This document shows, in pieces, positions 26,560 through 48,430 of a stretch of DNA of 64,000 nucleotides (position 1 is its first letter; each line of letters starts with the position of its first letter). Origin of the DNA: an uncultured Brevundimonas sp. (GTDB taxonomy: Bacteria > Pseudomonadota > Alphaproteobacteria > Caulobacterales > Caulobacteraceae). The translations under genes were made by a program, and so were the position numbers. Below the pieces are notes generated by a model. The model was not told the DNA's origin, did no database searches, and saw only the letters and a program-made list of their open reading frames with translations. Location of the stretch: contig NZ_CALMFB010000054.1 in assembly GCF_937863155.1 (NCBI RefSeq), positions 29,975 through 93,974 of the forward strand, read 5' to 3'.

Positions 26560-27024
26560 CTAGCCCAACTGATCCAGCAGGGCGTTGAACCGCCGACGCG
26601 CCAGGACCGGCGTCCGGGCGACCGCGGCGCGCATGGCCGCCAGATTGGGCCACGACCGTCCCACCGCGATCACCGCCACCATGCCCATGCCGTAGTGGGG
26701 CGCGCATTTGATCCCATAGACGCCCGGCCGGTCGACCCTCAGCTCGAACACGGCGTTGATGGCGCCGCGCCCGCCGGTGGCGCCGTCGGGCAGCATGGTC
26801 GCCAGGGTCTCGGCGTTGTGGCTGGGATCGGTCGGTACGAAACGGATCACGTCGCCCGGCTGGGCGCGGATCAGGGCCGGCTCGAACACCATGGCGCCGG
26901 CCGCCCCGCGGCTCAGCATCCTGACCTCGCGCACGGCGGCGCGCGCGGCGGATGCCACGCCCAGGGCGGGCGCAAGCATAAGGCCGCCCAGCGAAAGCAG
27001 GGCGTGACGACGATGCCAGGACAT
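26560..27024 (-). CDS. paz: Pseudoazurin (type 1 copper protein)
   Basis: MVFEPA...PGD..RFVPTDPSHN; KCAPHYGMGM (His/Cys/His/Met ligands); RR signal peptide. Confidence 0.88.
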   Translation of the reverse strand: MSWHRRHALLSLGGLMLAPALGVASAARAAVREVRMLSRGAAGAMVFEPALIRAQPGDVIRFVPTDPSHNAETLATMLPDGATGGRGAINAVFELRVDRPGVYGIKCAPHYGMGMVAVIAVGRSWPNLAAMRAAVARTPVLARRRFNALLDQLG

Positions 27025-27105: not shown

Positions 27106-27735
27106 TCAGCCGCTCGGAATTATTTCGACGACCGACCGCGCCAGGCGGTCCACCTCGTTGCGATCATGGCTGACGTAGAGAATGGGCAAGCCCAACTGGT
27201 CGCGCAGCCTTTCGATCAGCGCCAGCACGCCTTCGCGGCGGGCCGGATCGACCCCCGACAGAGGCTCGTCCATCAGCAGGGCGCGAGGGTGGCGCAACAG
27301 GGCGCGCCCGATGGCCACGCGACGCGCCTCGCCGCCCGACAGGCCCTGGGGCCGCCGCGCCAGAAGAGGGCCGACACCCAGGATGTCGACGATCTCGTCG
27401 AACGCCACGGGGCCGGCGACGTCGCCGAGCCGGCGGCCGTACAGCAGGTTGTCGCGCACGGTCAGGTGCGGGAACAGGCGGCCGTCCTGAAACACATAGC
27501 CCAGGCGGCGGTGTTCGGGCGCCAGGTCGATCCCGGCGTCGGCGTCGAACAGAACCTGGCCGGCCACGACGATGCGTCCCCGGTCGGGTTTCAGCAGGCC
27601 GGCGATCATGTTCAGCACACTGGACTTGCCCACGCCGGACGGTCCGTAAAGCGCGGTCAGACCGGCCGAGGCCGAGAAGCGGACCTCAACACGGACGTCG
27701 CCCAGCCGGCGCTGCACATCGACGTCAAACGACAT
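27106..27735 (-). CDS. modC: Molybdate ABC transporter ATPase
   Basis: GPSGVGKS, GYVFQDGRLFPHL, LSGGE, LLMDEP. Confidence 0.9.
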   Translation of the reverse strand: MSFDVDVQRRLGDVRVEVRFSASAGLTALYGPSGVGKSSVLNMIAGLLKPDRGRIVVAGQVLFDADAGIDLAPEHRRLGYVFQDGRLFPHLTVRDNLLYGRRLGDVAGPVAFDEIVDILGVGPLLARRPQGLSGGEARRVAIGRALLRHPRALLMDEPLSGVDPARREGVLALIERLRDQLGLPILYVSHDRNEVDRLARSVVEIIPSG

Positions 27736-28420
27736 CGCGCGCCTCCTGACGGTGAGAACGCCGCGTCAGATATTCGGACACGGCCAGGGCCACCAGCGAC
27801 AATCCGACCGAGAACAGCGCCAGCCGCATGGCCGCGCCGTCGCCGCCCGGCGTCTGCAAGGCCGTGTAGATGGCCAGGGACAGGGTCCGCGTCTCGCCGG
27901 GGATGTTCGACACGAAGGCGATGGTGGCCCCGAACTCGCCGATGGATCGGGCGAAGCCCAGCACCACGCCCGCCAACACGCCCGGCAGGGCCAGCGGCAG
28001 GCTGATGGTCCAGAAGGTTCGCGTCCGCGAGGCGCCCAGGGTGCGCGCCGCATTCTCCAACCGCCGATCCACCGCCTCGATCGACAGGCGCATGGCCCGC
28101 ACCATCAGCGGCAGGGCCATGACCCCGGCGGCCACAGCGGCGCCGGTCCAACGGAACATCAGGCTGACGCCGAACAGGTCAGCCAGCAGCCGGCCGATCG
28201 GTCCCGCGGGGCCGAAGGCGCTCAACAGCAGCCAGCCGATCACCACCGGCGGCGCCACCAGCGGCAGATGGATCACGCCGTCCAGCAGGAACCGCCCCGG
28301 AAACCGCCAGCGCGCCAGCGCCCAGGCCAGGGCGAAGGCGATGGGCAGGCCCAGGCCCGTCGCCACCAGGCTGACCTTCAGCGACAGACCGATCACGGCC
28401 CATTCGGCGGGCGTCAGCAT
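27725..28420 (-). CDS. modB: Molybdate ABC transporter permease
   Basis: IHLPLVAPPVVIG, FARSIGEFGATI; start overlaps the modA stop. Confidence 0.92.
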   Translation of the reverse strand: MLTPAEWAVIGLSLKVSLVATGLGLPIAFALAWALARWRFPGRFLLDGVIHLPLVAPPVVIGWLLLSAFGPAGPIGRLLADLFGVSLMFRWTGAAVAAGVMALPLMVRAMRLSIEAVDRRLENAARTLGASRTRTFWTISLPLALPGVLAGVVLGFARSIGEFGATIAFVSNIPGETRTLSLAIYTALQTPGGDGAAMRLALFSVGLSLVALAVSEYLTRRSHRQEARDVV

Positions 28421-29214
28421 CAGGGCGCCGCCGCGGGACTGAAGCCGTGGCGCGCCAGAACGTCCTGGGCCGGCACGGATAAAAGGAACTGGCGCAGCGG
28501 CTCGGCCTGGTCCTGTTTCGACGCCGCGACCACGGCGATCGGATAGACGATGGGCGGATGGCTGTTCTCGGGAAAGACGCCGACCACGCGCACGCCCGAC
28601 GACGCCCGCGCATCGGTCGCATAGACGACGCCCAGGGGCGCGGCCCCACGCTCGACCAACGCCAGGGCCGCCCGCACGTTCTCGGCCGGAGCGACGCGGT
28701 TCGCGACCGCCGTCCAGGCGCCCAGCGCCGTCAGGGCCGCCTTGCCGTAGCGTCCGGCGGGCACCGCCTCCGGGTCGGCCATGGCCAGCCGACCGTCGTC
28801 CAGCAGGGCCGCCACATCCATGCCGGGCCTGATGTCCAGTTGCGCCGTCGAAGCCGCCGGGGCGATCAGGACCAGCCGATTGCCCACCAGGGCCGCGCGG
28901 CTGTCCGGGCGGATCAGCTGCTTCCGCGCCAGCGCATCCATCCAGGCCTCGTCGGCCGAGATGAACAGATCGGTCGGAGCGCCCGCCTCGACCTGGCGCG
29001 CCAGGGCCGAAGACCCGGCATAGGAGACGACCGGCGCGGGATGCCCCTGGGCCGCCCACAGGGCCAGCGCCTCGTCCAGCGGGCCTTGCAGGCTGGCGGC
29101 GGCCAGGATGACCGGCGGCGTCTCGGGCGCCGGACGCGAACAACCGGCCAGCGCCGCCAGACCCAGCGCCAGGCCCGCGAGACCGGCGATCAGGCGGCGA
29201 CGATCAGTGGGCAT
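28420..29214 (-). CDS. modA: Molybdate-binding periplasmic lipoprotein
   Basis: AAASL, AGSSALARQ..GAP.DLFISAD, VPAGRYG, ENVRAAL, VYATDA. Confidence 0.93.
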   Translation of the reverse strand: MPTDRRRLIAGLAGLALGLAALAGCSRPAPETPPVILAAASLQGPLDEALALWAAQGHPAPVVSYAGSSALARQVEAGAPTDLFISADEAWMDALARKQLIRPDSRAALVGNRLVLIAPAASTAQLDIRPGMDVAALLDDGRLAMADPEAVPAGRYGKAALTALGAWTAVANRVAPAENVRAALALVERGAAPLGVVYATDARASSGVRVVGVFPENSHPPIVYPIAVVAASKQDQAEPLRQFLLSVPAQDVLARHGFSPAAAP

Positions 29215-29731
29215 GGCCGCCCTTGCGCTGAACCGTCGCGTCGGCCAGGTCGATCAGCTCGATCCGCACCACCTGACGGGTGGAGCGCGCCGGGCGGATA
29301 TCGTCTTCGATGATGACGCGGAACGGCCCGGTCCCGTCGTTCAGCGGCGCGCCGTCGGCGGCGTCGGCCAGGATGATGCGATTGGGCCGGATGCCGGGAT
29401 CGGCCTCGCCCAGGCCGATGACCACCTGATAGCCGTCCTCGGCGACGATCCGCACCACCTTGGCCAGCTCCAGCCCGTGCATGGCGTCGGTGGCGGGCGC
29501 GCCAACGCGGTTCAGCACCTCGAACAGCAACGGGCCTTCGTAGGTGTGGGTTTCCCCATGGATCTCCATGGTGATCTGTTCGCGCGCCAAGGTCGAAAGA
29601 TCGGCGGCGGTGACGACCTGTTCGCGGCCATCCACACCCTTCAGGGTCACGGACTGGGCGAAGGCGGGCGCGGCGATCAGCAGCGCGGCGGCGGTCAGGC
29701 AGGTGGAGGCGAGGCGGGCCAGGGGGCGCAT
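29204..29731 (-). CDS. Exported protein with molybdopterin-oxidoreductase-like fold (uncharacterised)
   Basis: Signal peptide; HTYEGPLLFEVL, IVAEDGYQV, GPFRVII, RSTRQVVRIE resemble the MsrP/sulfite-oxidase Moco-binding domain; no Cys in the mature part. Confidence 0.55.
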   Translation of the reverse strand: MRPLARLASTCLTAAALLIAAPAFAQSVTLKGVDGREQVVTAADLSTLAREQITMEIHGETHTYEGPLLFEVLNRVGAPATDAMHGLELAKVVRIVAEDGYQVVIGLGEADPGIRPNRIILADAADGAPLNDGTGPFRVIIEDDIRPARSTRQVVRIELIDLADATVQRKGGHAH

Positions 29732-29742
29732 GGGGCGTGTTC

Positions 29743-30537
29743 CTATTCGACGGCCAGGATGACGTGGGGCGCCTTGACCAGGGCGGTGACGGCGTCGCCG
29801 ACGGCCAGCTCCAGGGTGTTGGCGCTTTCGATGGTGATGGTGGCGGTCAGGGTCTTGCCGCCGCCGATGTCGACGGCGATCTCGCTGTTGACGGCGCCGT
29901 CCTCGCGCCCGGCGACGGTTCCGGCGATCTGGTTGCGGGCCGAGGTGCGCAGGTTTTCGCCCTTGGCCAGGACGACGAAGCTGGACTTGATCAGGGCGAT
30001 GGCCGGGCGGCCGACGTCCAGTTGCAAATCCTCGATGCTGCGCCGGGTCAGGATGGCGACGATCTCGACCCCGTCGGCGAGGCTCAGAACCACCTCGCTG
30101 TTGACGGCGCCGGGGACGACGCGGGTGACGACGCCGCGCAGGGCGTTGCGTGCGCTGGTTCTCATGCCCAGGCTCCAGAAAAGGTCGCGGGAGAATTCCC
30201 CCGCGAGCGTGGCGTCCATCTTGGACAGGGCGGCGTCCAGTTCGGACTGGATACGGCGAAAGGCGACGATGGCGGCGCGGCCGCGCGGGGTGACCTGGGC
30301 CGCCCCCCCGCCCTTGCCGCCGGGCGCCGCCTCGACCAGGGGGGTGTCGAACAGATTGTTCAACGCCTGGATGACGTCCCAGGCCCCCTTGTAGCTGAGG
30401 CCCTGGGTCTTGGCCGCCGCGCTGATGGAGCCCAGCTCGCCGACCGCCTCGATCAGGGCGATGCGGTCCAGCCGCAGCCGCCCGCCGTCGCCCCGCGTGA
30501 CCGTCAGAAGGGCGCCCAGGTCCGCCTCGTCGCTCAT
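29743..30537 (-). CDS. modE: Molybdate-responsive regulator ModE (HTH + 2 TOBE)
   Basis: LIEAVGELGSISAAAK..GLSYKGAWD; TSARNALRG and TSARNQIAG mop repeats. Confidence 0.93.
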   Translation of the reverse strand: MSDEADLGALLTVTRGDGGRLRLDRIALIEAVGELGSISAAAKTQGLSYKGAWDVIQALNNLFDTPLVEAAPGGKGGGAAQVTPRGRAAIVAFRRIQSELDAALSKMDATLAGEFSRDLFWSLGMRTSARNALRGVVTRVVPGAVNSEVVLSLADGVEIVAILTRRSIEDLQLDVGRPAIALIKSSFVVLAKGENLRTSARNQIAGTVAGREDGAVNSEIAVDIGGGKTLTATITIESANTLELAVGDAVTALVKAPHVILAVE

Positions 30538-30553
30538 CCGCCTGTCCCCATGC

Positions 30554-32617
30554 CTAGAACCGCATCCGCAGGTCGAGCCGGAAGTTTCGGCCTTCCTCCG
30601 GGAAGCCATCGGTCAGGACATAGGTCTCGTCCAGCAGATTCCGAACGCCGCCGATCAGGTCGATGCGCGGCGTCAGGGCGAACTGTCCCGACAGATGCGC
30701 CAGGATGACCGAGTCCGCCTTGTAATAGCCGACGGGCGCGACCGACCGGTAAGTCCAGCGGTCCGAGGTCGCCTCGAGACTGGGGGTGACGGTCAGGCGC
30801 GGCGTGACGTCCCAGTCGGCCCAGGCGAACAGTTTGTGCTCAGGCGCGCCGGTCGCGCGATAGGCCGGATCGCCAGGCACGTCGAAATCACGCCTCAGCC
30901 AGGTATAGTTGGCGCCCAGCCGCAGGGTCGGCGACGCCTGGCCCGTGATCGCGGCCTCGAAACCATAGTTGGCGCCCGAACCGGCGTTGCGCGTCTGGTT
31001 GGTCACGCCGAAGGGCGGGCCCAGATCCACCGGAATCTGGATCAAGGCGTCCTGAATGTCGGCATAGAAGATCGCGCCTTCGACCTGGAGACCCGAGGCG
31101 ATCCGGCGTCGGCCGCCGATCTCGAAATTCAGCGCCCGTTCGGCGGTGATGTCGGGGTTGGGAATGGCCGTTCCGAAGCGCGAGCTGAAACGCTCGAACA
31201 GGGTCGGGAACCGCGTGCGGGACGAGACGCTGGCATAGACTTGGCTATCGACGTCCGGCCGCCAGACCAGCATGGCCTGAGCGTTCAGGGCGCTGTCGTC
31301 GGTCAGGGGGTGATAGACGAATTTGTTGTCGTTGAAGTCCTCGGCCCGCTGCAGGTCGCGGTAGTCCCAGGACACGCCCACGATCAGATCGACCGCCTCG
31401 CCGAACGCATGGGTGTTCTCGACGGCGATGGACCATGTGTCTTCGGTCGTGGTGTGTGGCGGCTCGATGAACGGCGTCGGGGCGAAGCTCTGCTGCCACT
31501 CCACATGCTCGTCGCGGCGATAGAAGACGGCGGCGCGCAGGGTGTCGTTCGGGCTGATCCGCAGGCCCAGTTCGATGTTCCCGCCATAGGCCTCGTCCTC
31601 ATAGTAGGAGTTGAAGGCCCGGCGCTGGGTCTGGCTGGTCTGGGCGGCGTTGTCGAACGAGGACAGCAGGTTCTCGAAGGTGTTGCGATACAGCCGCGTC
31701 TTCAGCCAGGCGTCCTGGCCCAGTTGCGTCCGCGACAGGAAGGCCAGGCTGTCGATGTTCCAGTAGGGCCAGCTCCAGTAGCGGGTGCTGGCCGTGTCGG
31801 TGACGTGATAGGGCGCGTTCTTGGACCCTTCCTGGCGGGTATAGGTCAGAGAGTATTCGTCGGTCGCGTTTGGGGTGAAGCCGGCCTTCAGATTGATGCG
31901 CCAGTCCTCGGTCGCCGACAGCTCGCGTTCGTCGCCGTCTTCCAGCGTCGTCGGTTTGAAGTCGTCGGGCAGGGACCAGTGGTCGCGGTCGCTCAGCGCC
32001 CCGCTGATCTGGGCGTAGAAACGGTCCGTGGCGCCGCCGATGCGGCCCGAGACCGTGTGGCTGTTGATCCCGCCATCGGCGTCGAAACCGGCGCCGACCC
32101 GCAGTTCGCCCTCGAACGGCCGACTGGGCCGCCGGGTCACCAGATTGATGGCCCCGCCCATGCCGCCGGGACCATCCAGCACCGAGACATAGCCCTTGGA
32201 CACCTGCACCTGCGACAGGTCGGCGGTCAGGAAGCGAGCGAAGTCGATGCGATTGTCCGCCGGCAGGAACACCCGCACCCCGTCGATCGACAGGGTGGTC
32301 TGGAACCGGTCGAAGCCGCGGATGAACACCAGACGCTCGTTGCGCGAGCCGCCCGACGACCCAGCCGCCGCGCCGGGGATCAGGTCCAGCGCCTGATCGA
32401 CGCTGGCCTTGTCGAAGCGGCGCATGTCGTCGCTACGGATCACGGCGCCGCCGACGATCTGACCGTCGCGGTCGCGCGCCGTCACCACCAGTTCGCCCAG
32501 ATCATAGGCGTCGTCGGGACGGTCGGCCGGCGCCGATTGCGCCAGGGCAACGCCTGCCGACGCCAGGGCTGCGAAACCGGCGGCGCCGGCCAGAAGGAGA
32601 GCACGGAAGGTCATCAT
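30554..32617 (-). CDS. TonB-dependent outer-membrane receptor
   Basis: Signal peptide, TonB-box-like ELVVTAR, plug IRGF...IDGV...GGAINLVTR, C-terminal VRNLLDETY...EGRNFRLDLRMRF. Confidence 0.92.
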   Translation of the reverse strand: MMTFRALLLAGAAGFAALASAGVALAQSAPADRPDDAYDLGELVVTARDRDGQIVGGAVIRSDDMRRFDKASVDQALDLIPGAAAGSSGGSRNERLVFIRGFDRFQTTLSIDGVRVFLPADNRIDFARFLTADLSQVQVSKGYVSVLDGPGGMGGAINLVTRRPSRPFEGELRVGAGFDADGGINSHTVSGRIGGATDRFYAQISGALSDRDHWSLPDDFKPTTLEDGDERELSATEDWRINLKAGFTPNATDEYSLTYTRQEGSKNAPYHVTDTASTRYWSWPYWNIDSLAFLSRTQLGQDAWLKTRLYRNTFENLLSSFDNAAQTSQTQRRAFNSYYEDEAYGGNIELGLRISPNDTLRAAVFYRRDEHVEWQQSFAPTPFIEPPHTTTEDTWSIAVENTHAFGEAVDLIVGVSWDYRDLQRAEDFNDNKFVYHPLTDDSALNAQAMLVWRPDVDSQVYASVSSRTRFPTLFERFSSRFGTAIPNPDITAERALNFEIGGRRRIASGLQVEGAIFYADIQDALIQIPVDLGPPFGVTNQTRNAGSGANYGFEAAITGQASPTLRLGANYTWLRRDFDVPGDPAYRATGAPEHKLFAWADWDVTPRLTVTPSLEATSDRWTYRSVAPVGYYKADSVILAHLSGQFALTPRIDLIGGVRNLLDETYVLTDGFPEEGRNFRLDLRMRF

Positions 32618-32621
32618 CCAC

Positions 32622-32650
32622 CTCGTTATGTAGTAGAACTACATAACGAG
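32622..32650. promoter_or_regulatory. ModE box
   Basis: Perfect inverted repeat CTCGTTATGTAG-TAGAA-CTACATAACGAG, similar to the CGnTATATA-Nx-TATATAnCG consensus, 5 bp from the receptor start codon. Confidence 0.85.
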
Positions 32651-32673
32651 AACCCGGTCCATGTGGCGAGGCG

Positions 32674-33270
32674 TCATCCTGTCGCAGTCGGGGCCATCAG
32701 GCGTTCCGCCAGATCCAGATCCGCGGACGAATTGATGTTGGCGAACGGGTCGCGATGCGTAACCGGCCAGTCGACCACCACCGGACCGGCGCGTTCGACC
32801 AGGGCCGTCAGGGACAGGCGCCCCTGCCCCACCACCTCGTCCAGCAATGGCCGCACCGAGGTGCGCCACACGGCGCAGACGGGATGCAGCCGTCCCGCGC
32901 TGGCGGCGACCGCGACGCCGTCGTCCGGTCCCAGATTGGCCGCCAGCCGCCCGGCCAGGTCGTCGGGCAGGAAGGGCATGTCGCACGGCACGACCAGCAC
33001 GCGGTCGCCGCCCTGCTGGACCGCCCAGTCCAGAGCCGCGGCCAGCCCGGCCAGCGGCCCTTCTATTTCAGGGGTGTCGATCAGCAGCCGCAAGCCGTCG
33101 ATCCCGGCCTGTTCGGGCGACCGAACGCCCACGGCGATACAGGCCGACCAACCCCGTGCCCTGATCAGCGCATGGTCCAGAAGGGTCCGCCCGCCCAGGC
33201 GGCGCCGGGGCTTGTCGCCGCCGATGCGCCGCCCCTGCCCGCCGGCCAGAATGACCACCGGCAAAGTCAT
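32674..33270 (-). CDS. mobA: Molybdenum cofactor guanylyltransferase
   Basis: VILAGGQGRRIGGDK, GPLAGL, VPCDMPFLP, NIN. Confidence 0.9.
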   Translation of the reverse strand: MTLPVVILAGGQGRRIGGDKPRRRLGGRTLLDHALIRARGWSACIAVGVRSPEQAGIDGLRLLIDTPEIEGPLAGLAAALDWAVQQGGDRVLVVPCDMPFLPDDLAGRLAANLGPDDGVAVAASAGRLHPVCAVWRTSVRPLLDEVVGQGRLSLTALVERAGPVVVDWPVTHRDPFANINSSADLDLAERLMAPTATG

Positions 33271-35746: not shown

Positions 35747-36868
35747 TCAACGTCTCCGTATCAGGGTGAAGGTCTTGGCCGGCGGGGCCAGGGTCTGGCG
35801 CAGGATCGACTGGGCGCAGGCCAGCGCCGGGTCGTCGGCGCCCTGGGCGACCGAGATCAGGCGGGTCCAGACCTCGTCGTCGGCCTGGGCCAGGAAGGCG
35901 GCCAGGGTCTCGCGCACGAAGGCGGCCATGGGCTGTGATCGACGCTCGGCCTCGGACCGCGCCAGCTCGGCCAGTTCCGGGTCCGCCGACGCCAGCCAGC
36001 GTTCGGACCGCAGGGCCAGAGCTTCGCCGTCGCCCATCAGATCGCCGAACGACAGGGCGCCGGGCGCGACCTGTCCGGCCTCGTCCAGCGTCAGGGCCAC
36101 GCCGGTCTCGCGCGCATCGTCGGCCAGGGCGGCGACATAGCGGGCGGCCGCGCCGGCCCAGGCGCGATGGCGAAGACGCTCGGCGATATCGGCCTGGACG
36201 TGCTCGAACGGCAGGCGTCGGCCGGGCTGGCGCCGGTCCAGCCGCAGGACGTGCCAGCCGAAACGCGAACGCACCGGCCGGTCGCCGATCTGGCCGGGCG
36301 CAAGGTCGGTCAGGGCGCGTTCGACCTCGGGCGTCAGGTCGCCAGGGAACAGCTGGCCCAGGGCGCCGCCGACGTCGCGTGACGAACACTGAGACAGTTC
36401 TCGCGCCAGGTCGGCGAACAGGCCCGGCTGCGCGGACAGGCGTTCGATCAGAACGTTCGCCTGGGCCTCGGTTTCGCTCCAGTCGGCGTCGTCTTCTCCG
36501 GGCGGCTGCAACAGGATGTGCGACGCCTCGATCATGGTCGGGGTCATGAAGCGGTCGGGCGCGGCGTCATAGACGCGCCGCCGTTCGTCTTGCGTCGGTT
36601 CGTCCACCTGGACTTCCTGGTCCAGCAGAACGCGGATCAGGGCCTCGTCACGGGTTTCCTCACGGCCGTCGTCATCGACCTGAGGGTTGGCGTCCAGGTC
36701 CAGGCCCCGCGCCCGGTTCAGCAGCAGGGCGCGGATGGCCAGGGCGCGGGCCGCCTCGATGCGGGCCTCGGCCAGGCTGGCGGCGGGATGGTGGCTGATC
36801 TCCTGGGCGATCAGCTTTTCGGGCACCGCGACGCCGTCGATGACCACGGATGGACCGGCGGCGGTCAT
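35747..36868 (-). CDS. PpiC/parvulin-type peptidyl-prolyl isomerase (NifM-like, nar-associated)
   Basis: ASHILL, FADLARELSQCSS...GGALG, PVRSRFGWHV; about 90-aa C-terminal extension. Confidence 0.85.
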   Translation of the reverse strand: MTAAGPSVVIDGVAVPEKLIAQEISHHPAASLAEARIEAARALAIRALLLNRARGLDLDANPQVDDDGREETRDEALIRVLLDQEVQVDEPTQDERRRVYDAAPDRFMTPTMIEASHILLQPPGEDDADWSETEAQANVLIERLSAQPGLFADLARELSQCSSRDVGGALGQLFPGDLTPEVERALTDLAPGQIGDRPVRSRFGWHVLRLDRRQPGRRLPFEHVQADIAERLRHRAWAGAAARYVAALADDARETGVALTLDEAGQVAPGALSFGDLMGDGEALALRSERWLASADPELAELARSEAERRSQPMAAFVRETLAAFLAQADDEVWTRLISVAQGADDPALACAQSILRQTLAPPAKTFTLIRRR

Positions 36869-37605
36869 CAGGGACGCCCCCGCAGGTGCGGCGGGGCCTT
36901 GGACTTGCGGTCCAGCGGCAGGATGCGCTTGCTGCGCACCAGCTGCCAGCCGCGCCGGTTCAGATACCAGACCGGCGCCGACAGCATGTGCACCAGCCGG
37001 GTGAAGGGGAAGACCAGGAAGATGGTCAGGCCCAGCACGATGTGCGCCTTGAAGATCCAGTGCACGTCCGCAATGTGGTTGGCCACGCCGGGCTGGAAGG
37101 TGAAAACCCCCTGGGCCCAGCTCATGAATTTCACCATCTCGTGGCCGTCCATATGCTCCATGGACACGAAGATGCTGGACAGGCCCAGGCACAGCTGGAG
37201 CATCAGCACGATCAGGATCGCCGTGTCGCCAAAGCTGGAGTTGCGCCGGATGCGCGCGTCGAACAGGCGACGGTGCAGCAGCAGCAGGCCGCCGATCAGG
37301 CACAGGGTTCCGGCGAAACCGCCCGCCACCATGGCGATCAACTGTTTGACGCTGTGCGGAACGCCCAGGGTGTCCCACACGATCACCGGCGTCAGCAGGC
37401 CGACGAAATGGCCGCCGAAGATCATCAGCACGCCGACGTGGAACAGGATCGATCCCATCACCAGCTGCTTGCGCCGCAGAAGCTGGGACGAGCCGGTGCG
37501 CCAGGAATAGGGTTCGCGGTCGAAACGCACGATCGAGCCGATCGCCAGCACCGCCAGGGCGATGTAGGGATAGACGCCGAAAAGGATCTGGTTGAGGTCA
37601 AGCAT
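36868..37605 (-). CDS. narI: Respiratory nitrate reductase gamma subunit
   Basis: YPYIAL...RFDREPYSWRTGSSQLL, FHVG...GH, HIVLG...FPFTRLVH. Confidence 0.96.
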   Translation of the reverse strand: MLDLNQILFGVYPYIALAVLAIGSIVRFDREPYSWRTGSSQLLRRKQLVMGSILFHVGVLMIFGGHFVGLLTPVIVWDTLGVPHSVKQLIAMVAGGFAGTLCLIGGLLLLHRRLFDARIRRNSSFGDTAILIVLMLQLCLGLSSIFVSMEHMDGHEMVKFMSWAQGVFTFQPGVANHIADVHWIFKAHIVLGLTIFLVFPFTRLVHMLSAPVWYLNRRGWQLVRSKRILPLDRKSKAPPHLRGRP

Positions 37606-37616
37606 CTCTCGTCTCC

Positions 37617-38321
37617 TCAGGCGCGCCGTTTCAGGGTTTCAGCGGCCGGGTCAGGCCCGGCCCTCATGGCCGCGACCAGGGCCTCGGCCTTGGGACAGCC
37701 GGCGTCGCCAGGGCCGAAGGTGACGGCCGTCTCCTCCCAGGCCTTGTCGATGGCTTCCAGGTCGTCGGGATTGTCGTCCGGCTCGCTGAGCAGGGCGGCC
37801 ACCGCCTCGCGGTCGGCGCCGCCGGCCAGGGCGCACAGGGCGCCGAAGACCCCGCGATAGGGGCTGTCGCGCTTCTTCAGCCGCTCGCCCATGGCGTCCA
37901 GCACATGCGCCGCCTCGCCCAACAGGGACGCCGCCTCGGCGTCCGGGCGGGTGGACAGATAGTCCAGGAACACCGGCAGGAAGTCCGGCAGTTCGTTGGC
38001 GTCCAGCTCCAGCCCGTTCTGCTGATACAGCTCGACCAGATCGGCCATGGCCTGACCCCGGTCGCGGCTTTCGCCGTGCACATGTTCGTACAGGTTCAGC
38101 GACAGCGAGCGGGTGCGGTCGAACAGCTGAACGTAGTTTTCCTGAAGCGCATAAATGTCTTCGCGCGCCAGTTCGTCCGCCAGCTTCGACAGGGCGCGCA
38201 CCAGCGGATCGGACACCAGGCCCTCGGCGCGGATGGCGGCCAGATAGTCATGGGCGCCGGTCTTCAGCCCCTCGGTCGGATAGGTCAGGAACAGGGCCAG
38301 GGCCCGATAGGTGACGGCCAT
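37617..38321 (-). CDS. narJ: Nitrate reductase chaperone
   Basis: YVQLFDRTRSLSLNLYEHVHGESRDRGQAM, ELPDFLP. Confidence 0.96.
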   Translation of the reverse strand: MAVTYRALALFLTYPTEGLKTGAHDYLAAIRAEGLVSDPLVRALSKLADELAREDIYALQENYVQLFDRTRSLSLNLYEHVHGESRDRGQAMADLVELYQQNGLELDANELPDFLPVFLDYLSTRPDAEAASLLGEAAHVLDAMGERLKKRDSPYRGVFGALCALAGGADREAVAALLSEPDDNPDDLEAIDKAWEETAVTFGPGDAGCPKAEALVAAMRAGPDPAAETLKRRA

Positions 38322-38334
38322 TATTCGACCTCCC

Positions 38335-39858
38335 TCATTTCACTTCCATGGGGGTGCGGGGCCGCGAACGGTCCTTGCGGCCGAACAGGCCGACCTCGGT
38401 CGTGCCTCCCGAACAGCCGTTGCCGAAGGTGAAGCCGCACGAGCCGCGCAGGTCATAGGCGTCCTCGACCGTCTCGCGGTGGGTCGTCGGGATGACGAAC
38501 CGGTCCTCGAAATCGGCGATGGCCATGATCTTGTACATGTCGTCGATCTGGGCGGCGGTCAGGCCCACGCGCTCGGCCAGCGGATGGTCGATGCGTCCGT
38601 CGATGGTCTTGGTCCGCATGTAGCCGCGCATGGCCAGCATCCGCTCCAGGGCGGTGACGACCGGGGCCTCGACCCCCGCCGTCAGCAGGTTGGCCAGATA
38701 TTTTACCGGGATGCGCAGCGAGCGGACGTCGGGCATGTCGCCGTCGGTCCCGATGGCGCCGACCGAGGCCGCCGACTGGATCGGCGACAGCGGCGGCACA
38801 TACCAGACCATCGGCAGGGTGCGGTATTCGGGATGCAGCGGGAAGGCGACCTTCCAGTCCATCGCCATCTTCCACACCGGGCTGCGTTTCGCCGCCTCCA
38901 GCCAGGCCTCCGGCACGCCATCGGCGCGGGCCTGGGCGATCACCGCCGGGTCGTTGGGGTCCAGGAAGACGTCGAGCTGGGCCTGATACAGGTCTTCCTC
39001 GGCCACGCTGGCCGCCGCCTCGATGCGGTCGGCGTCATACAGCATGACCCCCAGGTAGCGGATGCGACCGACGCAGGTTTCCGAACACACGGTCGGCAAC
39101 CCGGATTCGATGCGCGGATAGCAGAAGGTGCATTTCTCCGACTTCCCGGATTCCCAGTTGTAGTAGATCTTCTTGTAGGGGCAGGCCGAGACGCACATGC
39201 GCCAGCCGCGGCATTTCTCCTGGTCGATCAGGACGACGCCGTCTTCTTCGCGTTTGTAGATGGCGCCCGACGGACAGGCGGCGACGCAGGTCGGGTTCAG
39301 GCAGTGTTCGCACAGCCTGGGCAGGTACATCATGAAGGTGTTTTCGAAGGCTCCGTAGATCTCCTTCTCGACGCCCTCGAAATTATAGTCCTGCGACCGC
39401 TTGGCGAATTCGCCGCCCAGGATCTCCTCCCAGTTCGGCCCCCATTCGATCTTCTCCATCCGCTGGCCGCTGACCTTCGAGCGGGGGCGGGCGGTGGGGA
39501 AATGCTTCATCTCCGGCGCTTCCTGGAGATGGGCGTAGTCGAAGTCGAACGGCTCGTAATAGTCGTCGATCTCGGGCAGGTCGGGGTTGGCGAAGATCTT
39601 GGCCAGGATGCGCCACTTCGGCCCCATCTTTGGCTGGATGCGGCCGTTGGCCTTGCGCTCCCATCCGCCGTTCCAGCGTTTCTGGTTTTCCCAGTCCTTG
39701 GGATAGCCGACGCCGGGCTTGGTCTCGACGTTGTTGAACCAGGCGTATTCGACGCCTTCGCGGTTGGTCCACACGTTCTTGCAGGTGACGGAGCAGGTGT
39801 GACACCCGATGCATTTATCGAGGTTCAGCACCATGCCGATCTGGGCGCGGACCTTCAT
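38335..39858 (-). CDS. narH: Respiratory nitrate reductase beta subunit
   Basis: MKVRAQIGMVLNLDKCIGCHTCSVTCK and further Fe-S motifs. Confidence 0.98.
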   Translation of the reverse strand: MKVRAQIGMVLNLDKCIGCHTCSVTCKNVWTNREGVEYAWFNNVETKPGVGYPKDWENQKRWNGGWERKANGRIQPKMGPKWRILAKIFANPDLPEIDDYYEPFDFDYAHLQEAPEMKHFPTARPRSKVSGQRMEKIEWGPNWEEILGGEFAKRSQDYNFEGVEKEIYGAFENTFMMYLPRLCEHCLNPTCVAACPSGAIYKREEDGVVLIDQEKCRGWRMCVSACPYKKIYYNWESGKSEKCTFCYPRIESGLPTVCSETCVGRIRYLGVMLYDADRIEAAASVAEEDLYQAQLDVFLDPNDPAVIAQARADGVPEAWLEAAKRSPVWKMAMDWKVAFPLHPEYRTLPMVWYVPPLSPIQSAASVGAIGTDGDMPDVRSLRIPVKYLANLLTAGVEAPVVTALERMLAMRGYMRTKTIDGRIDHPLAERVGLTAAQIDDMYKIMAIADFEDRFVIPTTHRETVEDAYDLRGSCGFTFGNGCSGGTTEVGLFGRKDRSRPRTPMEVK

Positions 39859-42800
39859 CGGGCGGTCTCCTTGGCGTTGAGGGGTTCGTCCAGCCAGTCG
39901 ACCTTGTTCATCTTGCGCACGACCACGAATTCATCGCGGTTCGAGCCGACCGTGCCGTAGTAGTTGAAGCCGTAGGCCAGCTGGACGTAGCCGCCGATCA
40001 TGTGCGTCGGCTTGGGCACGATGCGGGTGACCGAGTTGTGGATGCCGCCGCGCCGGCCGGTGATCTGCGACCCCGGCGTGTTCACGATCTTCTCCTGGGC
40101 GTGGTACATGAAGGTCGTCCCCTCACGCATCCGCTGCGACACCACCGCCCGCGCCGAGATGGCGCCGTTGGCGTTGAACAGCTCGACCCAGTCGTTGTCG
40201 ATGATGCCGGCCTTCTGGGCGTCCGTCTCCGAGATCCAGATGACCGGCCCGCCACGGTTCAGCGTCAGCATCATCAGATTGTCGGAATAGGTGGAGTGGA
40301 TGCCCCACTTCTGGTGCGGGGTGATGAAGTTCAGGACGATCTCGGTCTCGCCATTGGGCTTCATGCCCTTGACCCAGGTGGTCTTGAGATCCAGCGGCGG
40401 GCGATAGACGCACAGCGCCTCGCCGAAGGCGCGCATCCACAGGTGGTCCTGATACAGCTGCTGGCGGCCCGTCAGGGTGCGCCACGGGATCAGCTCGTGC
40501 ACGTTGGTATAGTTGGCCGTGTAGCAGACATGCTCGGACTCCAGCCCCGACCAGATCGGCGACGAGATGATCTTGCGCGGCTGGGCCACGATGTCGCGGA
40601 AGCGGATCTTCTCCTCTTCCTTGGGCAGGGCCAGGTGGGTGTGATCGCGCCCCGTGACCCGCGACAGCGACGCCCACGACTTGACCGCCACCTCGCCGTT
40701 GGTTTCCGGCGCCATCATCAGCACCGCCTCGCAGGCGTCGATGGCGCTCTCCATCTTGGGCAGGCCCTTGGACACGCCTTCGTCCAGCACTTCGCCGTTC
40801 AGGGCGCGCAGCAGGTCGATCTCGTGCTCGGTGTTCCAGGCCAGGCCCTTGCCGCCGTTGCCGATCTTGGTCATCAGCGGGCCGATAGAGGTGAACTGCT
40901 TGTAGAGGTTGGGATAATCCCGCTCGACCACCGTGATCTGGGGCATGGTGCGGTTGGGGATGGGATCGCATTCCCCGTGCCACCAGTCCTTCACGTCGAA
41001 CGGCTGGGCCAGTTCGCCGGGGCTGTCGTGCTGGATCGGGGTCAGCACCACGTCCTTCTCGACGCCCAGAACCTCGGGACAGATGTCCGAGAAGGTCTTG
41101 GCCAGGCCGCGGAAGATGTCCCAGTCGGACCGCGACTCCCACGCCGGGTCCACGGCCGCCGTCAGCGGGTGGATGAAGGGGTGCATGTCCGAGGTGTTGA
41201 GGTCGTTCTTCTCGTACCAGGTGGCGGTCGGCAGAACGATGTCCGAATAGACGGCGGTGGTGGACATGCGGAAGTCCAGCGTCACCAGGAGGTCCAGCTT
41301 CCCTTCGGGGGCGTCGTCATGCCACGCCACCTCATTGGGCTTGGCCTTGCCGGCTTCGCCCAGATCCTGACCCTGCACCCCGTGGGCGGCGCCCAGAAGG
41401 TGCTTCAGGAAATACTCGTGGCCCTTGCCCGAGGACCCCAGCAGGTTCGAGCGCCAGACGAACATGTTGCGCGGCCAGTTGGCCGGATCGTCCGGGTCCA
41501 TGCAGGACATTTCCAGCGACCGGTCCTTCAGCCGCTGGACGGCGTAATCCTTGGGATCGACGCCCGCTTCGACGGCCTGACGCGCCACCTCCAGCGGATT
41601 GGTCTTCAGCGCCGGGGCCGAGGGCAGCCAGCCCAGGCGTTCCGCCTTGGCGTTGAAGTCGATCAGCGAGCCGGACCAGTCTCCGTCCGGCGCCGTGGGC
41701 GACAGGATTTCGTCCGCCGAGACGGTCTCGTACCGCCACTGGTCGGTGTGGGCGTAGAAGAAGGAGGTCGAGTTCTGCTGACGCGGCGGACGCAGCCAGT
41801 CCAGCGCAAAGGCCACCGGCGCCCAGCCCGACTGGGGCCGCAGCTTCTCCTGACCGACATAGTGGGCCCAGCCCCCGCCCGACTGACCCACGCAGCCGCA
41901 CATCACCAGCATGTTGATGACGGCGCGATAGTTCATGTCCATGTGGAACCAGTGGTTCATCGCCGCGCCGATGATGACCATGGACTTGCCGTTGGTCTTT
42001 TCGGCGTTGGTCGCGAACCCGCGCGCCGTGGCGATGATCTGGTCGCGCGGCACCGAGGTGATGGCCTCGGCCCAGGCGGGCGAATAGGGCTGGGCGTCGT
42101 CGTAGTCGGTCGGCATGGCCTCGCCGCCGAAGCCTTGATCGACGCCGTAGTTGGCCAGGAACAGATCATAGACGCTGGCCACCAGGGCCTCGCCCTCGAC
42201 CAGTTTCATCCGCTTGACCGGCACATTGCGCACCAGGACGTCGGGGTGGTCGGTTGAGGCGAAGCCGTTGGAGGCGGTGTTGGCGAAATAGGGGAAACGG
42301 ACGCCCGCCACCTCGTCATGCACGCCCTTCAGGCCCAGGCGCAGTTTCGTCTCGCGTCCGTCGGCGGCTTTCTCCTCCAGGTTCCAGCGGCCCTGCTCGC
42401 CCCAGCGGAAGCCGACCGAGCCGTTCGGCACGACCACCTCGCCTGTGGTCTCGTCGAGGGCGACGGTCTTCCATTCGGGATTGTTGGCCTGGTCCAGTGA
42501 GCCGTCGAAGTCCGACGCGCGCAGCAGGCGTTCGGGAACCAGTCCGCCGTCCTGCGGCACCAGCCGCACCAGCATGGGCAGGTCCGAATACTGGCGCACA
42601 TAGTCGCGGAAGTAGGGCACTTCCCGGTCGACGTGGAATTCCTTCAGGATCACGTGGCCGAACGCCATGCCCAGGGCCGCGTCCGTGCCCTGTTTCACCG
42701 CCAGCCACAGGTCGCCGAATTTCGAGGCTTCGGAATAGTCGGGGCAGATGACCACCGACTTGGCCCCGCGATAGCGCGCCTCGGTATAGAAGTGGGCGTC

Positions 42801-43586
42801 CGGCGTGCGGGTCTGGGGCACGTTCGAGCCCCAGAGCAGCATGAAGCCCGAGTTGTACCAGTCGGCCGATTCCGGCACGTCGGTCTGCTCGCCCCAGGTC
42901 TGGGGCGAGGCGGGCGGCAGGTCGCAATACCAGTCGTAGAATGAGCCGCAGACCCCGCCCAGCAGCTGCAGGTAACGGGCGCCGGCCGCATAGGACAGCA
43001 TCGACATGGCCGGGATGGGCGAGAAGCCGAACACCCGGTCCGGGCCCCAGCGCTGGATCGTGTGGGCGTTGGCGGCCGCGATCAGCTCGTTCACCTCGTC
43101 CCAGGTGGCGCGCACGAAGCCGCCCGAGCCGCGCATCTGCACATAGTCGGCGCGCGCGGCCGGATCGTCCTGGATCGAGGCCCAGGCCGCGACCGGCGTC
43201 AGGGTCGCCCGCGCCGCGCGCCAGCGCTTCAGCAGACGGCCGCGGATGAGCGGGTATTTCACCCGGTTGGCGGAATACAGATACCAGCTGTAGCTGGCGC
43301 CGCGCGCGCAACCGCGCGGCTCATGGTTCGGCAGTTCGGGCCGGGTGCGCGGATAGTCGGTCTGCTGCGTCTCCCAGGTGACGATGCCGCCCTTGACGTA
43401 GATCTTCCACGAGCACGAGCCGGTGCAGTTCACCCCGTGGGTCGAGCGCACGATCTTGTCGTGGCGCCAGCGGTTTCGATAGGACTCTTCCCAGCTGCGG
43501 TCGTCGTCGTTCATGACGCCGTGGCGGTCGGAGAAGAGTTCGGTCTTGCGCTTGAAGAAGGCCAGACGGTCCAGGGTGTTGCTCAT
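39855..43586 (-). CDS. narG: Respiratory nitrate reductase alpha subunit
   Basis: HDKIVRSTHGVNCTGSC, SFYDWYCDLP, TPHQKWGIHSTY. Confidence 0.98.
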   Translation of the reverse strand: MSNTLDRLAFFKRKTELFSDRHGVMNDDDRSWEESYRNRWRHDKIVRSTHGVNCTGSCSWKIYVKGGIVTWETQQTDYPRTRPELPNHEPRGCARGASYSWYLYSANRVKYPLIRGRLLKRWRAARATLTPVAAWASIQDDPAARADYVQMRGSGGFVRATWDEVNELIAAANAHTIQRWGPDRVFGFSPIPAMSMLSYAAGARYLQLLGGVCGSFYDWYCDLPPASPQTWGEQTDVPESADWYNSGFMLLWGSNVPQTRTPDAHFYTEARYRGAKSVVICPDYSEASKFGDLWLAVKQGTDAALGMAFGHVILKEFHVDREVPYFRDYVRQYSDLPMLVRLVPQDGGLVPERLLRASDFDGSLDQANNPEWKTVALDETTGEVVVPNGSVGFRWGEQGRWNLEEKAADGRETKLRLGLKGVHDEVAGVRFPYFANTASNGFASTDHPDVLVRNVPVKRMKLVEGEALVASVYDLFLANYGVDQGFGGEAMPTDYDDAQPYSPAWAEAITSVPRDQIIATARGFATNAEKTNGKSMVIIGAAMNHWFHMDMNYRAVINMLVMCGCVGQSGGGWAHYVGQEKLRPQSGWAPVAFALDWLRPPRQQNSTSFFYAHTDQWRYETVSADEILSPTAPDGDWSGSLIDFNAKAERLGWLPSAPALKTNPLEVARQAVEAGVDPKDYAVQRLKDRSLEMSCMDPDDPANWPRNMFVWRSNLLGSSGKGHEYFLKHLLGAAHGVQGQDLGEAGKAKPNEVAWHDDAPEGKLDLLVTLDFRMSTTAVYSDIVLPTATWYEKNDLNTSDMHPFIHPLTAAVDPAWESRSDWDIFRGLAKTFSDICPEVLGVEKDVVLTPIQHDSPGELAQPFDVKDWWHGECDPIPNRTMPQITVVERDYPNLYKQFTSIGPLMTKIGNGGKGLAWNTEHEIDLLRALNGEVLDEGVSKGLPKMESAIDACEAVLMMAPETNGEVAVKSWASLSRVTGRDHTHLALPKEEEKIRFRDIVAQPRKIISSPIWSGLESEHVCYTANYTNVHELIPWRTLTGRQQLYQDHLWMRAFGEALCVYRPPLDLKTTWVKGMKPNGETEIVLNFITPHQKWGIHSTYSDNLMMLTLNRGGPVIWISETDAQKAGIIDNDWVELFNANGAISARAVVSQRMREGTTFMYHAQEKIVNTPGSQITGRRGGIHNSVTRIVPKPTHMIGGYVQLAYGFNYYGTVGSNRDEFVVVRKMNKVDWLDEPLNAKETAR

Positions 43587-43589
43587 GGG

Positions 43590-44984
43590 TCAGGCCGCCG
43601 TGCTGTGGGAAACATTCAGGAGCGAGCCGCGCCGGGCGTAGTACAGCCAGTTGATCACCGCGCAGCTCAGGTAGAAGCCGAGGAAGATGTAGAGGGCCAG
43701 GGCGGGGTCGCCGGTCGCCTTCATCGAGTTGGCGAAGGCCAGGGGAATGAAGAAGCCGCCATAGGCGCCGATGGCCGACGAGAAGCCGACGATGGCCGCC
43801 GATTCCCGCTCTGACGCCTTCAACCGCTCTTCCGACGTGGCGCCGGGCATCAGGCGCGGCATGTCCGCCCGCACCAGGGCCGGGATCATCTGGAAGGTCG
43901 AGGCGTTGCCCACGCCGGTCCAGAAGAACAGCCAGAGGAAGCTGGCGAAGAACAGGCCGAAGGTCGCCTCTGCGCCAAACACGCCGATGCTGTAAAGCAC
44001 GCCCAAGACGCCGATCAGCAGGGCGCCGAAGACGATCTGGGTGACATTGTGCCCGCCCCACCGGTCCGAGACCCAGCCCGTCAGCGCCCGCGACGCGGCG
44101 CCGACCAGCGGCCCCAGGAAGGCGATCTGCAGGATGTTCACGTCCGGGAACAGGGTCTTGCCCAGCAGGGGAAAGGCCGCCGAGAAGCCGATGAACGAGC
44201 CGAAGGTGCCGATGTAGAGGTAGCACATCAGCCAGTTGTGCTTGCGCTTGAACACCACGGCCTGCTCGCGGAACGAGGACTTGGCCGAGGCCACGTCGTT
44301 CATGCCGAACCAGGCGGCGACGGCGGCGATCAGGATGAAGGGAACCCAGAAGAAGCCCGCGTTCTGCAACCAGACCTGGGTCTCGACGCCGTTGGCGACA
44401 GCGGTCTGGGGCGCGCCGGCGATCGATCCGAACACGGCCAGGCCGGTGACCAGAGGCGCGGCGAACTGCAGGGCGCTGACCCCCAGATTGCCGAAGCCGG
44501 CGTTCAGGGCCAGGGCGTTGCCCTTCTCGCTCTTGGGAAAGAAGAAGCCGATGTTGGCCATGGACGAGGCGAAGGCCCCGCCGCCCAGGCCGCAAAGCAG
44601 CGCCAGGACGATGAACACCGAATAGGGCGTCGTCACATCCTGCACCGCCATGCCGATGCCGATGGCCGGGATCAGCAGCGACAGGGTCGACAGCGTCGTC
44701 CACAGCCGCCCGCCGACGATCGGCGGCATGAAGCCGTAGAAGATGCGCAAGGTGGCGCCCGACAGGGCCGGCAGGGCCGTCAGCCAGAACAGTTCGGACG
44801 TCGAGAACTGGAAGCCGATGCTGTTCAGCCGCGTGGCCGCCGTGGACCACAGCATCCAGACCGAAAAGGCCAAGAGCAGGTTGGGGATCGAGATCCACAG
44901 GTTGCGCCGGGCGATCCGGCGGCCGGTGGCGCGCCAGAAGTCGGGGTCTTCGGGGCGCCAGTCATGAAGCACGTGTCGGGACAT
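43590..44984 (-). CDS. narK: Nitrate/nitrite antiporter, NarK2-type
   Basis: WRPEDP.FW...ARRNLWIS, GGAFASSM, GNASTFQMI. Confidence 0.93.
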   Translation of the reverse strand: MSRHVLHDWRPEDPDFWRATGRRIARRNLWISIPNLLLAFSVWMLWSTAATRLNSIGFQFSTSELFWLTALPALSGATLRIFYGFMPPIVGGRLWTTLSTLSLLIPAIGIGMAVQDVTTPYSVFIVLALLCGLGGGAFASSMANIGFFFPKSEKGNALALNAGFGNLGVSALQFAAPLVTGLAVFGSIAGAPQTAVANGVETQVWLQNAGFFWVPFILIAAVAAWFGMNDVASAKSSFREQAVVFKRKHNWLMCYLYIGTFGSFIGFSAAFPLLGKTLFPDVNILQIAFLGPLVGAASRALTGWVSDRWGGHNVTQIVFGALLIGVLGVLYSIGVFGAEATFGLFFASFLWLFFWTGVGNASTFQMIPALVRADMPRLMPGATSEERLKASERESAAIVGFSSAIGAYGGFFIPLAFANSMKATGDPALALYIFLGFYLSCAVINWLYYARRGSLLNVSHSTAA

Positions 44985-45003
44985 GGGCAGAAGCGTCCTT
45001 GCG

Positions 45004-46362: not shown

Positions 46363-46432
46363 CTCGCGACCTCCCGAAACCTGGAGATTGTCTCCGTCGG
46401 GAAGGATGTGCGCCGTGCGTGATCAGTACGGC

Positions 46433-46446
46433 TTGCTGTTTATCAA
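46433..46446. promoter_or_regulatory. FNR-type box upstream of narK1
   Basis: TTGCT-GTTT-ATCAA. Confidence 0.65.
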
Positions 46447-46589
46447 GCGCACCCTAGACGCCGGTCCAGAATTCAAAACCAGTTGCGCGATGACAGGGAT
46501 TTTATTGAGAGCGAAAATCAATAGCTAAACTAGACGGCGATGAGTTGTCTTGACGCAAAGCGCTGTCGCGCCGGGGCGGACACACTGGC

Positions 46590-46603
46590 TTGATGAAAGT
46601 TAA
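46590..46603. promoter_or_regulatory. FNR-type box upstream of the divergent Crp/Fnr gene
   Basis: TTGAT-GAAA-GTTAA. Confidence 0.5.
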
Positions 46604-46630
46604 CCGCCAGAATCGGCCGGAGGGCGTCCG

Positions 46631-47416: not shown

Positions 47417-47431
47417 GGCGAGCGCCGCGGA

Positions 47432-48424: not shown

Positions 48425-48430
48425 TTGGAA

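Follow-up and report, generated by a model that had tools for sequence, protein, structure and literature searches.

We examined a 64,000-nucleotide stretch of DNA from an uncultured Brevundimonas sp. (here, the window), in which a minus-strand operon places the gene for a TonB-dependent receptor (TBDR) at the head of the genes for the molybdate regulator ModE and the molybdate importer ModABC. A palindrome resembling a ModE operator lies immediately in front of the receptor gene, and a sixth gene, between modE and modA, encodes a small exported protein that we call p175. The features of the locus, with the evidence for each, are listed below in the order of transcription.

32674-33270, minus strand: mobA, molybdenum cofactor (Moco) guanylyltransferase, directly upstream of the receptor gene (TIGR02665, E 3e-39)
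32622-32650, minus strand: predicted ModE-type operator, a perfect 13+3+13 palindrome (repeat search)
30554-32617, minus strand: TBDR, 687 amino acids, first gene of the operon (Pfam PF07715 and PF00593)
29743-30609, minus strand: modE, full length, with a LysR-type helix-turn-helix (HTH)/ModE_repress domain and two Mop/TOBE domains (TIGR00637, TIGR00638 twice, PRK10676)
29204-29731, minus strand: p175, Sec-exported protein of 175 amino acids with a truncated sulfite-oxidase fold (AlphaFold2 [AF2] and Foldseek)
28420-29214, minus strand: modA, periplasmic molybdate-binding protein (TIGR01256, 180 bits against a cut-off of 62.5)
27725-28429, minus strand: modB, permease (NF006939, 331 bits against 262; TIGR02141, 220 bits against 183)
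27106-27735, minus strand: modC, ATPase of 209 amino acids (TIGR02142, 259.5 bits against a cut-off of 285)

Profile searches against Pfam and NCBIfam give the order TBDR, modE, p175, modA, modB, modC, and at every junction the neighboring genes overlap or are separated by no more than 11 bp. This bears out the tight, same-direction arrangement proposed in an earlier description made from the letters alone (here, the sequence-only reading). The start of modA overlaps the stop of p175, and modE overlaps the end of the receptor gene from either of its candidate starts, of which the ATG at 30537, rather than the 30609 end, is probably the real one. ModE, a single copy in the genome, has its DNA-binding and Mop domains assigned by PF00126 and two PF03459 matches, with TIGR00638 matched twice at 140 bits; its TIGR00637 score of 86.8 bits is slightly under the cut-off of 98.5. 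ModA and ModB both exceed their model cut-offs. ModC matches only positions 3 to 203 of the 353 in TIGR02142, which is the ATPase half, and falls below the cut-off because its C-terminal TOBE/Mop domain is missing. In other ModC proteins, this domain mediates trans-inhibition by molybdate. The modC product of Brevundimonas goettingensis is likewise 209 amino acids long. A terminator-like hairpin follows modC at 27064-27050. At the other end of the operon, the mobA stop codon is 56 bp from the receptor ATG, a spacing close enough to make read-through from mobA into the receptor gene possible. A sigma-70 promoter scan upstream of the receptor returned nothing, although the consensus may not suit an alphaproteobacterium of 69% G+C.

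The palindrome consists of two 13-nucleotide (nt) arms (32622-32634 and 32638-32650), separated by 3 nt and fully (100%) complementary to each other. The sequence-only reading had described a perfect, ModE-like inverted repeat reaching the Shine-Dalgarno sequence of the receptor, which is correct except that the arms are 13 nt rather than 12 bp long. The coding strand reads CTCGTTATGTAGT-tct-ACTACATAACGAG-gtgg-ATGATG, with CGTTATGTAG-N5-CTACATAACG as the palindrome core; the palindrome ends 4 nt before the receptor ATG, and its 3' arm enters the GAGG of the ribosome-binding site. Using a degenerate ModE-type pattern scored out of 14 (CGNTATRT-N9-AYATANCG), we found that the half-sites match at all 14 positions. 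With up to one mismatch allowed, the pattern has a single match in the 64-kb window and none in any of 100 shuffles, and across the 2.79-Mb genome the palindrome is the sole 14/14 match, with no match at 13/14. Its half-sites also agree with the Escherichia coli ModE consensus, ATCGNTATATA-N6-TATATANCGAT (PMC545781). Measured against the Mo box, with CGNTATAT-type half-sites at a TATAT-N7-TAYAT spacing, the palindrome fits in its half-sites and is 1 bp off in its spacing.

Both in the window and in Caulobacter, the site is located at about -31 to -7 from the ATG and therefore implies a very short leader. In E. coli, the modA operator spans the transcription start site. A start within or just before the box in the window would be compatible with that arrangement. 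As RNA, the palindrome (32605-32665, minus strand) is predicted to form a 13-bp hairpin of -21.9 kcal/mol (z -2.6) in which the first Shine-Dalgarno bases are masked, and this could add a translational effect on top of an operator role.

Conservation of the site was assessed at 76 loci encoding relatives of the receptor, one per species, with a box called where the pattern scored at least 12/14 within -150 to +40 of the receptor start. By this measure, 59 of the 76 receptor loci carry a box. There are 64 matches in the 14.25 kb near receptor starts and 29 in the remaining 1.14 Mb, an enrichment of about 177-fold, and several of the 29 lie before p175 or 190 to 290 bp upstream of the receptor. 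A maximum-likelihood tree resolves a core clade of 59 receptors (support 96) with identities down to about 50%, and 52 of these are boxed. Two spacing classes are apparent: CGTTATGTAG-N5-CTACATAACG in Caulobacter, Phenylobacterium, and the window, and the E. coli-like CGCTATATA-N6-TATATAGCG in the Hyphomonadaceae/Terricaulis clades. That the two are clade specific and differ by 1 bp suggests that ModE has coevolved with the geometry of its operator.

The sequence-only reading had also proposed scoring the linkage of the receptor family to mod genes, and such linkage is found. modE directly follows the receptor gene at 19/76 loci, p175 lies within 2.5 kb of it at 19/76, and a ModA gene of at least 40% identity lies within 4.5 kb at 12/76. 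At several additional loci, a more divergent modA-like gene is located divergently upstream of the receptor, with a box between both genes. The box heads the TBDR-modE-p175-modABC operon and is kept at orthologous positions. A second ModE box occurs right after modE at five loci (L029 at 6733, L036 at 10928, L037 at 10914, L039 at 10930, and L042 at 10911) and directly precedes p175 in L037 and L042, where p175 was detected. No such internal box is present between modE and p175 in the window.

In seven genomes of the Caulobacter group, the receptor gene is located apart from the mod genes. At the locus whose flanks we inspected (L011), it lies between genes for a glutathione S-transferase and a cytochrome c peroxidase, and the box is retained. 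Genome-wide pattern searches return only one to three sites in each of the seven. Each genome has a single modE, divergent from a modA-like gene, and the same N9-type palindrome, at 12 to 13/14, occupies the intergenic region between the two. In one genome (G007), a third site is found about 10 bp upstream of a stand-alone, 167-amino-acid PF00174-like gene that is homologous to p175 (52% identity); another (G006) also has a boxed stand-alone p175 homologue. Because boxes are found at each of these genes, linked or not, the predicted regulon in this clade comprises modE, modA(BC), the receptor, and p175. By these comparisons, the receptor is a conserved predicted member of the ModE regulon regardless of linkage. 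These genomes provide the decisive comparative line for the palindrome as a ModE site, and the ModE box named in the sequence-only reading is supported by its retention both at receptor orthologues and at the modE/modA intergenic regions of genomes in which the receptor is unlinked. Taken together, the comparative evidence strongly supports the palindrome as a predicted ModE operator. G006 also contains a box-like palindrome with one mismatch, CCTTATGTTATGTTGTAACATAACG (L080, 1501-1525), flanked on one side by a MerC-like gene and on the other by the 3' end of another TBDR gene; its interior differs from that of the ModE-type boxes.

The second component of the operon without an assigned function, p175, has no family match in Pfam or NCBIfam. 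We found 136 homologues, many with a sub-threshold PF00174 match and some annotated as "molybdopterin-binding oxidoreductase." An AF2 model built from a 33-sequence alignment (predicted local distance difference test [pLDDT] 87) gives p175 a sulfite oxidase (SUOX) fold, in line with the sequence-only reading of an exported Moco-fold-like protein. Its top Foldseek matches are the PruR proteins (7kom, 7kos, and 7kp2), with TM-scores of 0.67 to 0.79 on target length and 18 to 21% identity, followed by the Moco domains of sulfite oxidases and YedY (E 1e-6 to 1e-4 against 2a9b, 1ogp, 1sox, and 1xdq). In profile comparison, plant sulfite oxidase (1ogp, E 1.5e-5) is closer than PruR (E 0.29).

Mature p175 contains no Cys and no Trp, and the homologue alignment has no invariant Cys. 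The protein therefore lacks both the Mo ligand of SUOX enzymes and the PW motif and W160 pterin sandwich of PruR (PMC11194511), while it keeps a Tyr common to SUOX and PruR (Y101) and two invariant arginines (R146 and R149). No twin-arginine motif is present in its signal peptide (MRPLARLAS...), and the protein is therefore predicted to be exported unfolded and cofactor free. With neither a Mo-coordinating Cys nor a twin-arginine translocation signal, and with a Sec signal instead, p175 was rejected as a Moco enzyme. The PruR proteins of Agrobacterium and Vibrio are likewise small, Sec exported, and of a truncated SUOX fold without the Moco cysteine. Their hallmarks, however, are the PW motif (W70), an N102/Y104/W160 pterin sandwich, and a pruR-dcpA operon (PMC11194511), whereas p175 retains only the Tyr position, and its partners are modE, modABC, and the TBDR rather than a DcpA-type cyclic di-GMP enzyme. 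p175 was accordingly rejected as a PruR orthologue.

Six p175 homologues were sampled independently of the receptor, and four of them lie beside modE, modABC, or moa genes. In Brevundimonas goettingensis (CP062222; L112, 980-7630), p175 is part of a tight string, moaA-moaD-moaE-mog-moaC-moeA-p175-modA-modB-modC, without a receptor, and the 10.5-kb locus has no ModE box of at least 11/14. At two other loci, a modE-p175 pair is divergent from modBA or modCBA. The fourth homologue (L117, 6240-10600) lies a few kilobases from a modCBA set that directly adjoins a gene for an OprO/P-type anion-selective porin (PF07396), which may represent an alternative dedicated outer-membrane route for molybdate. 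The remaining two are in unrelated contexts with no box, and more distant Caulobacter paralogues (37 to 43% identity) are also unboxed. Since p175 accompanies modABC where no receptor adjoins, it appears to work with ModABC and not solely with the receptor, and we read it as a putative ModABC helper. We conclude that p175 is a distinct, Mo-linked mini-SUOX family. Many of its homologues end in an HxH tail (HAH, HSH, HQH, or SHH; the C terminus of p175 corresponds to 29204-29225 in the window) that may be a metal-binding tag.

The receptor itself is a TonB-dependent transporter (TBDT) by PF07715 (plug, 56 bits) and PF00593 (barrel, 105 bits), by a 22-strand barrel in its AF2 model, and by its top Foldseek matches, which are all TBDTs. 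Its N terminus has a signal peptide (..ALA-QS) and a TonB-box-like DLGELVVTA. The Foldseek matches include PirA, OprC, and FptA at no more than 17% identity, and a search of PDB sequences with the receptor profile gave generic matches only, with CirA at 8e-19. Every substrate-specific NCBIfam model scores under its cut-off, the best being TIGR01783 (147.7 bits against 223.5); the TonB-copper model reaches 44 against 472 and BtuB 62 against 600. The genome encodes about 23 Plug-domain (TBDR) genes, and only the receptor of the operon has a box. There is no nonribosomal peptide synthetase (NRPS) condensation domain and no IucA/IucC synthetase in the genome, although other biosynthetic routes were not screened. 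A self-made molybdophore is therefore unlikely.

These findings lead us to favor, with modest confidence, a ModE-controlled, TonB-energized outer-membrane step that feeds ModABC, with a cargo that is an oxyanion or a loosely bound form ending as free periplasmic molybdate. The six genes would form a single ModE-controlled operon for high-affinity acquisition of Mo (or W) across both membranes. Under Mo-replete conditions, by analogy with E. coli modA, molybdate-loaded ModE would occupy the palindrome, which lies at the 5' end of the transcription unit, thereby blocking expression; under Mo scarcity, the operon would be derepressed. The receptor would then capture an external Mo species and pass it into the periplasm with energy from TonB-ExbBD, ModA would bind periplasmic molybdate, and ModBC would pump it into the cytoplasm for Moco synthesis and NarGHI. 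p175 would be a periplasmic helper of ModABC, which may retain Mo or release it to ModA. It is quite probable that the cargo includes Mo or W in one form or another, given the predicted cotranscription with modABC and the regulon membership. Within that, free oxyanion is preferred because the only inner-membrane importer in the operon is the oxyanion-type ModABC, no chelate-processing genes are present, and no metallophore synthesis genes were found.

Several observations weigh against this proposal. Molybdate is small and generally assumed to pass through porins, so an energized step is not obviously needed. ModE also regulates Mo-using genes, and regulon membership thus does not prove cargo. 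The AF2 model of the receptor is mediocre (pLDDT 70, with the plug below 50) and has no recognizable oxyanion site, and in Foldseek the receptor resembles siderophore and copper transporters only generically. The pterin-type fold of p175 is no less consistent with a more complex cargo than with free molybdate. At the DNA level, the spacing of the palindrome (TATGT-N8-TACAT) is 1 bp wider than in the E. coli consensus, and the box is absent from the -150 to +40 interval at 17 of the 76 loci, although several of these have one 190 to 290 bp upstream.

The SUOX/PruR-like fold of p175 leaves room for a chelate or pterin-type cargo. The sequence-only reading had gone in this direction, to a Mo-repressed importer for chelated Mo or W or for molybdopterin. 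The placement of the receptor in the ModE regulon agrees with it; the lack of the two synthetase types, the capacity of the genome to make its own Moco, and the presence of ModABC alone do not. We regard it as doubtful that the receptor imports Mo or W on a foreign organic chelator, such as a catecholate xeno-molybdophore or natural organic matter, from which p175 would free molybdate for ModA. Chelates are the classic TBDT cargo, catecholates serve Azotobacter for Mo, and "molybdophore" is already a term used in print. The structural neighbors of the receptor include the catecholate receptors PirA, PfeA, and FepA, but at the identities given above this likeness is generic. The additional periplasmic protein p175 would suit a chelated cargo, yet p175 is found with modABC even where no receptor adjoins, and genes for a chelate-type ABC importer, a reductase, or an esterase are missing from the operon. 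A chelator, if used, would have to come from other organisms, since the genome lacks its own NRPS condensation and IucA/IucC synthetases.

More broadly, it seems unlikely that the receptor and p175 jointly take up Mo-pterin or a different organic Mo species (such as products of Moco breakdown or a foreign molybdophore), in which case p175 would represent a new periplasmic class of Mo- or pterin-handling protein that frees molybdate for ModA. The version confined to pterins, in which the receptor serves in salvage or sensing of Moco, molybdopterin, or a related compound that p175 binds and whose Mo is released to ModA, is very unlikely. Free Moco is highly unstable, the genome has its own de novo Moco synthesis (moaA and mobA), and no inner-membrane pterin importer is present. 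The closest structures to p175 are nonetheless those of the periplasmic pterin-binding PruR proteins, its Sec-type signal would deliver it to the periplasm without a cofactor, and in B. goettingensis its gene directly follows the moa-moeA genes. At the residue level, the pterin-stacking position is kept, with the invariant Y101 aligned to the SUOX Tyr (PMC11194511), but the Trp residues of the PW motif and the W160 sandwich are missing, as is the Moco cysteine.

It is also distinctly improbable that the cargo is unrelated to Mo (iron, copper, sulfate-like anions, or another nutrient) and that ModE control is indirect, for example in support of Fe-S-dependent Moco synthesis or nitrate respiration. 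ModE regulons do include nontransport genes, and the best NCBIfam matches of the receptor are generic siderophore and heme receptor models; the substrate-specific models, however, all score far under their cut-offs. The receptor shares a predicted transcript with modABC, many genera retain the box together with linkage to modE, p175, and modA, and the 56-bp upstream region is occupied by the ModE box, which leaves no space for the site of another regulator. TBDRs of Azotobacter that answer Mo and V status through VnfA1 carry a siderophore-receptor annotation (PMC9542535), which counts for a non-Mo cargo. Finally, it is scarcely credible that the palindrome is a chance repeat, a mobA terminator, or a translational hairpin, as its place between the mobA stop and the receptor start, its RNA stem, and its 1-bp departure from the E. 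coli spacing might suggest, because no T-run follows it, 0 of 100 shuffles matched it, the same class of sequence is kept before orthologues whatever the upstream gene and at modE/modA intergenic regions, and the half-site bases are conserved while the center varies freely, as expected for protein recognition and not for a stem requirement; the chance-repeat and terminator readings were rejected on this conservation.

The favored scheme, a ModE-controlled and TonB-energized step ahead of ModABC, can be compared with several known systems. It shares with the E. coli ModE/modABC system a full-length ModE (HTH plus two Mop domains), half-sites of the form CGNTAT(A/G)T, an operator 5' of the mod unit, and modABC as the target (PMC545781). 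Unlike in E. coli, the spacer is 1 bp wider, and the operon is headed by a TBDR and holds modE and p175; the mod operon of E. coli K-12 has no outer-membrane component.

Metal-transporting TBDTs are known under the control of their own metal sensors: ZnuD (Zn, under Zur), OprC/NosA (Cu), and nickel TBDTs under NikR. Like the system proposed here, these combine an energized outer-membrane step and repression by a sensor with an inner-membrane ABC importer, and OprC has the same fold as the receptor (TM-score about 0.65 to 0.69). In contrast to them, the receptor has no evident His/Met/Cys metal cluster, and identity is at most 17%. The cargo of the receptor would be an oxyanion or a Mo complex, and to our knowledge neither is a demonstrated substrate of any TBDT. 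A search of the full-text literature found no characterized TonB-dependent Mo transporter and no paper on this receptor family, with precision limited by the collision of "ModE" with "mode." The sequence-only reading was thus right that no Mo-specific TonB receptor has been characterized in the searchable literature. Its view of the system as undescribed holds for characterization and not for annotation, as the Achr_39300 cluster of Azotobacter chroococcum has been described as containing a TonB receptor that may be for molybdate (PMC4465626). In Azotobacter vinelandii, three TonB receptors are activated by VnfA1 only in the absence of Mo and V (PMC9542535). These Azotobacter receptors, likened here by description rather than by sequence, are tied to Mo status genetically or transcriptionally and lie beside mod genes, but in another regulatory or genetic context (VnfA1; a type II ABC system), and neither has been functionally characterized as a Mo transporter. 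The only published dedicated outer-membrane molybdate route that we found is that of Pseudomonas aeruginosa, in which a ModA secreted by a type VI secretion system (T6SS) docks on the outer-membrane protein IcmP (cited in PMC11734730). As summarized there, that route uses a T6SS effector and the IcmP machinery and involves no TonB receptor.

The genome (2.79 Mb, 68.6% G+C, 99.6% complete) places the operon next to genes for nitrate respiration. An island at 36868-48442 on the minus strand, upstream of mobA and the mod operon, contains narK-narK-narGHJI, a PpiC/NifM-like gene, ftrB (FNR-type activator), and moaA, of which two parts are located as follows.

36868-46362, minus strand: narK-narK-narG-narH-narJ-narI, respiratory nitrate reductase (upstream context)
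47432-48442, minus strand: moaA (upstream context)

The genome has only two PF00384 matches, one of which is NarG, and NarG is its main Mo consumer. The locus is the Mo-supply arm of this nitrate-respiration island. A pseudoazurin gene (26560-27024) comes after modC. The sequence-only reading had pictured the system in oligotrophic water, a setting that is not supported: the locus adjoins narGHJI, and the public sequencing runs that contain its sequence come from activated sludge and wastewater. The only run with the locus that is described as "metatranscriptomic" (X4) was rejected as evidence of expression, as the locus lies there on a 17.7-kb contig of flat, DNA-like depth. The closely related strain in that run has 1-nt and 6-nt deletions within the receptor gene, at 32320 and 32477; unless it stems from an assembly error, the 1-nt deletion would cause a frameshift.

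In the textbook account, molybdate uptake begins in the periplasm with ModA, and passage across the outer membrane is assumed to be passive. Metal-sensor-controlled, TonB-dependent uptake is itself already known; what is new here is a putative Mo cargo and the accessory protein family p175. With a predicted ModE operator kept over dozens of genera, and with the receptor often inside the mod operon, the assumption of passive passage becomes directly testable in culturable Caulobacter and Phenylobacterium; the boxed receptor is carried, for instance, by Caulobacter sp. AP07, Caulobacter radicis, C. zeae, and Phenylobacterium sp. LjRoot97. The mini-SUOX protein p175 is a second uncharacterized component and would bring the PruR-type fold, described only recently, into metal homeostasis. 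If the cargo is instead organic Mo, bacteria would scavenge Mo from the cofactors or chelates of other organisms by a TonB-dependent route. If the favored account is true, Mo would join iron, B12, nickel, zinc, copper, and the lanthanides as a TonB-dependent cargo, with consequences for how Mo limits denitrification and nitrogen fixation, in this case in a nitrate respirer of wastewater.

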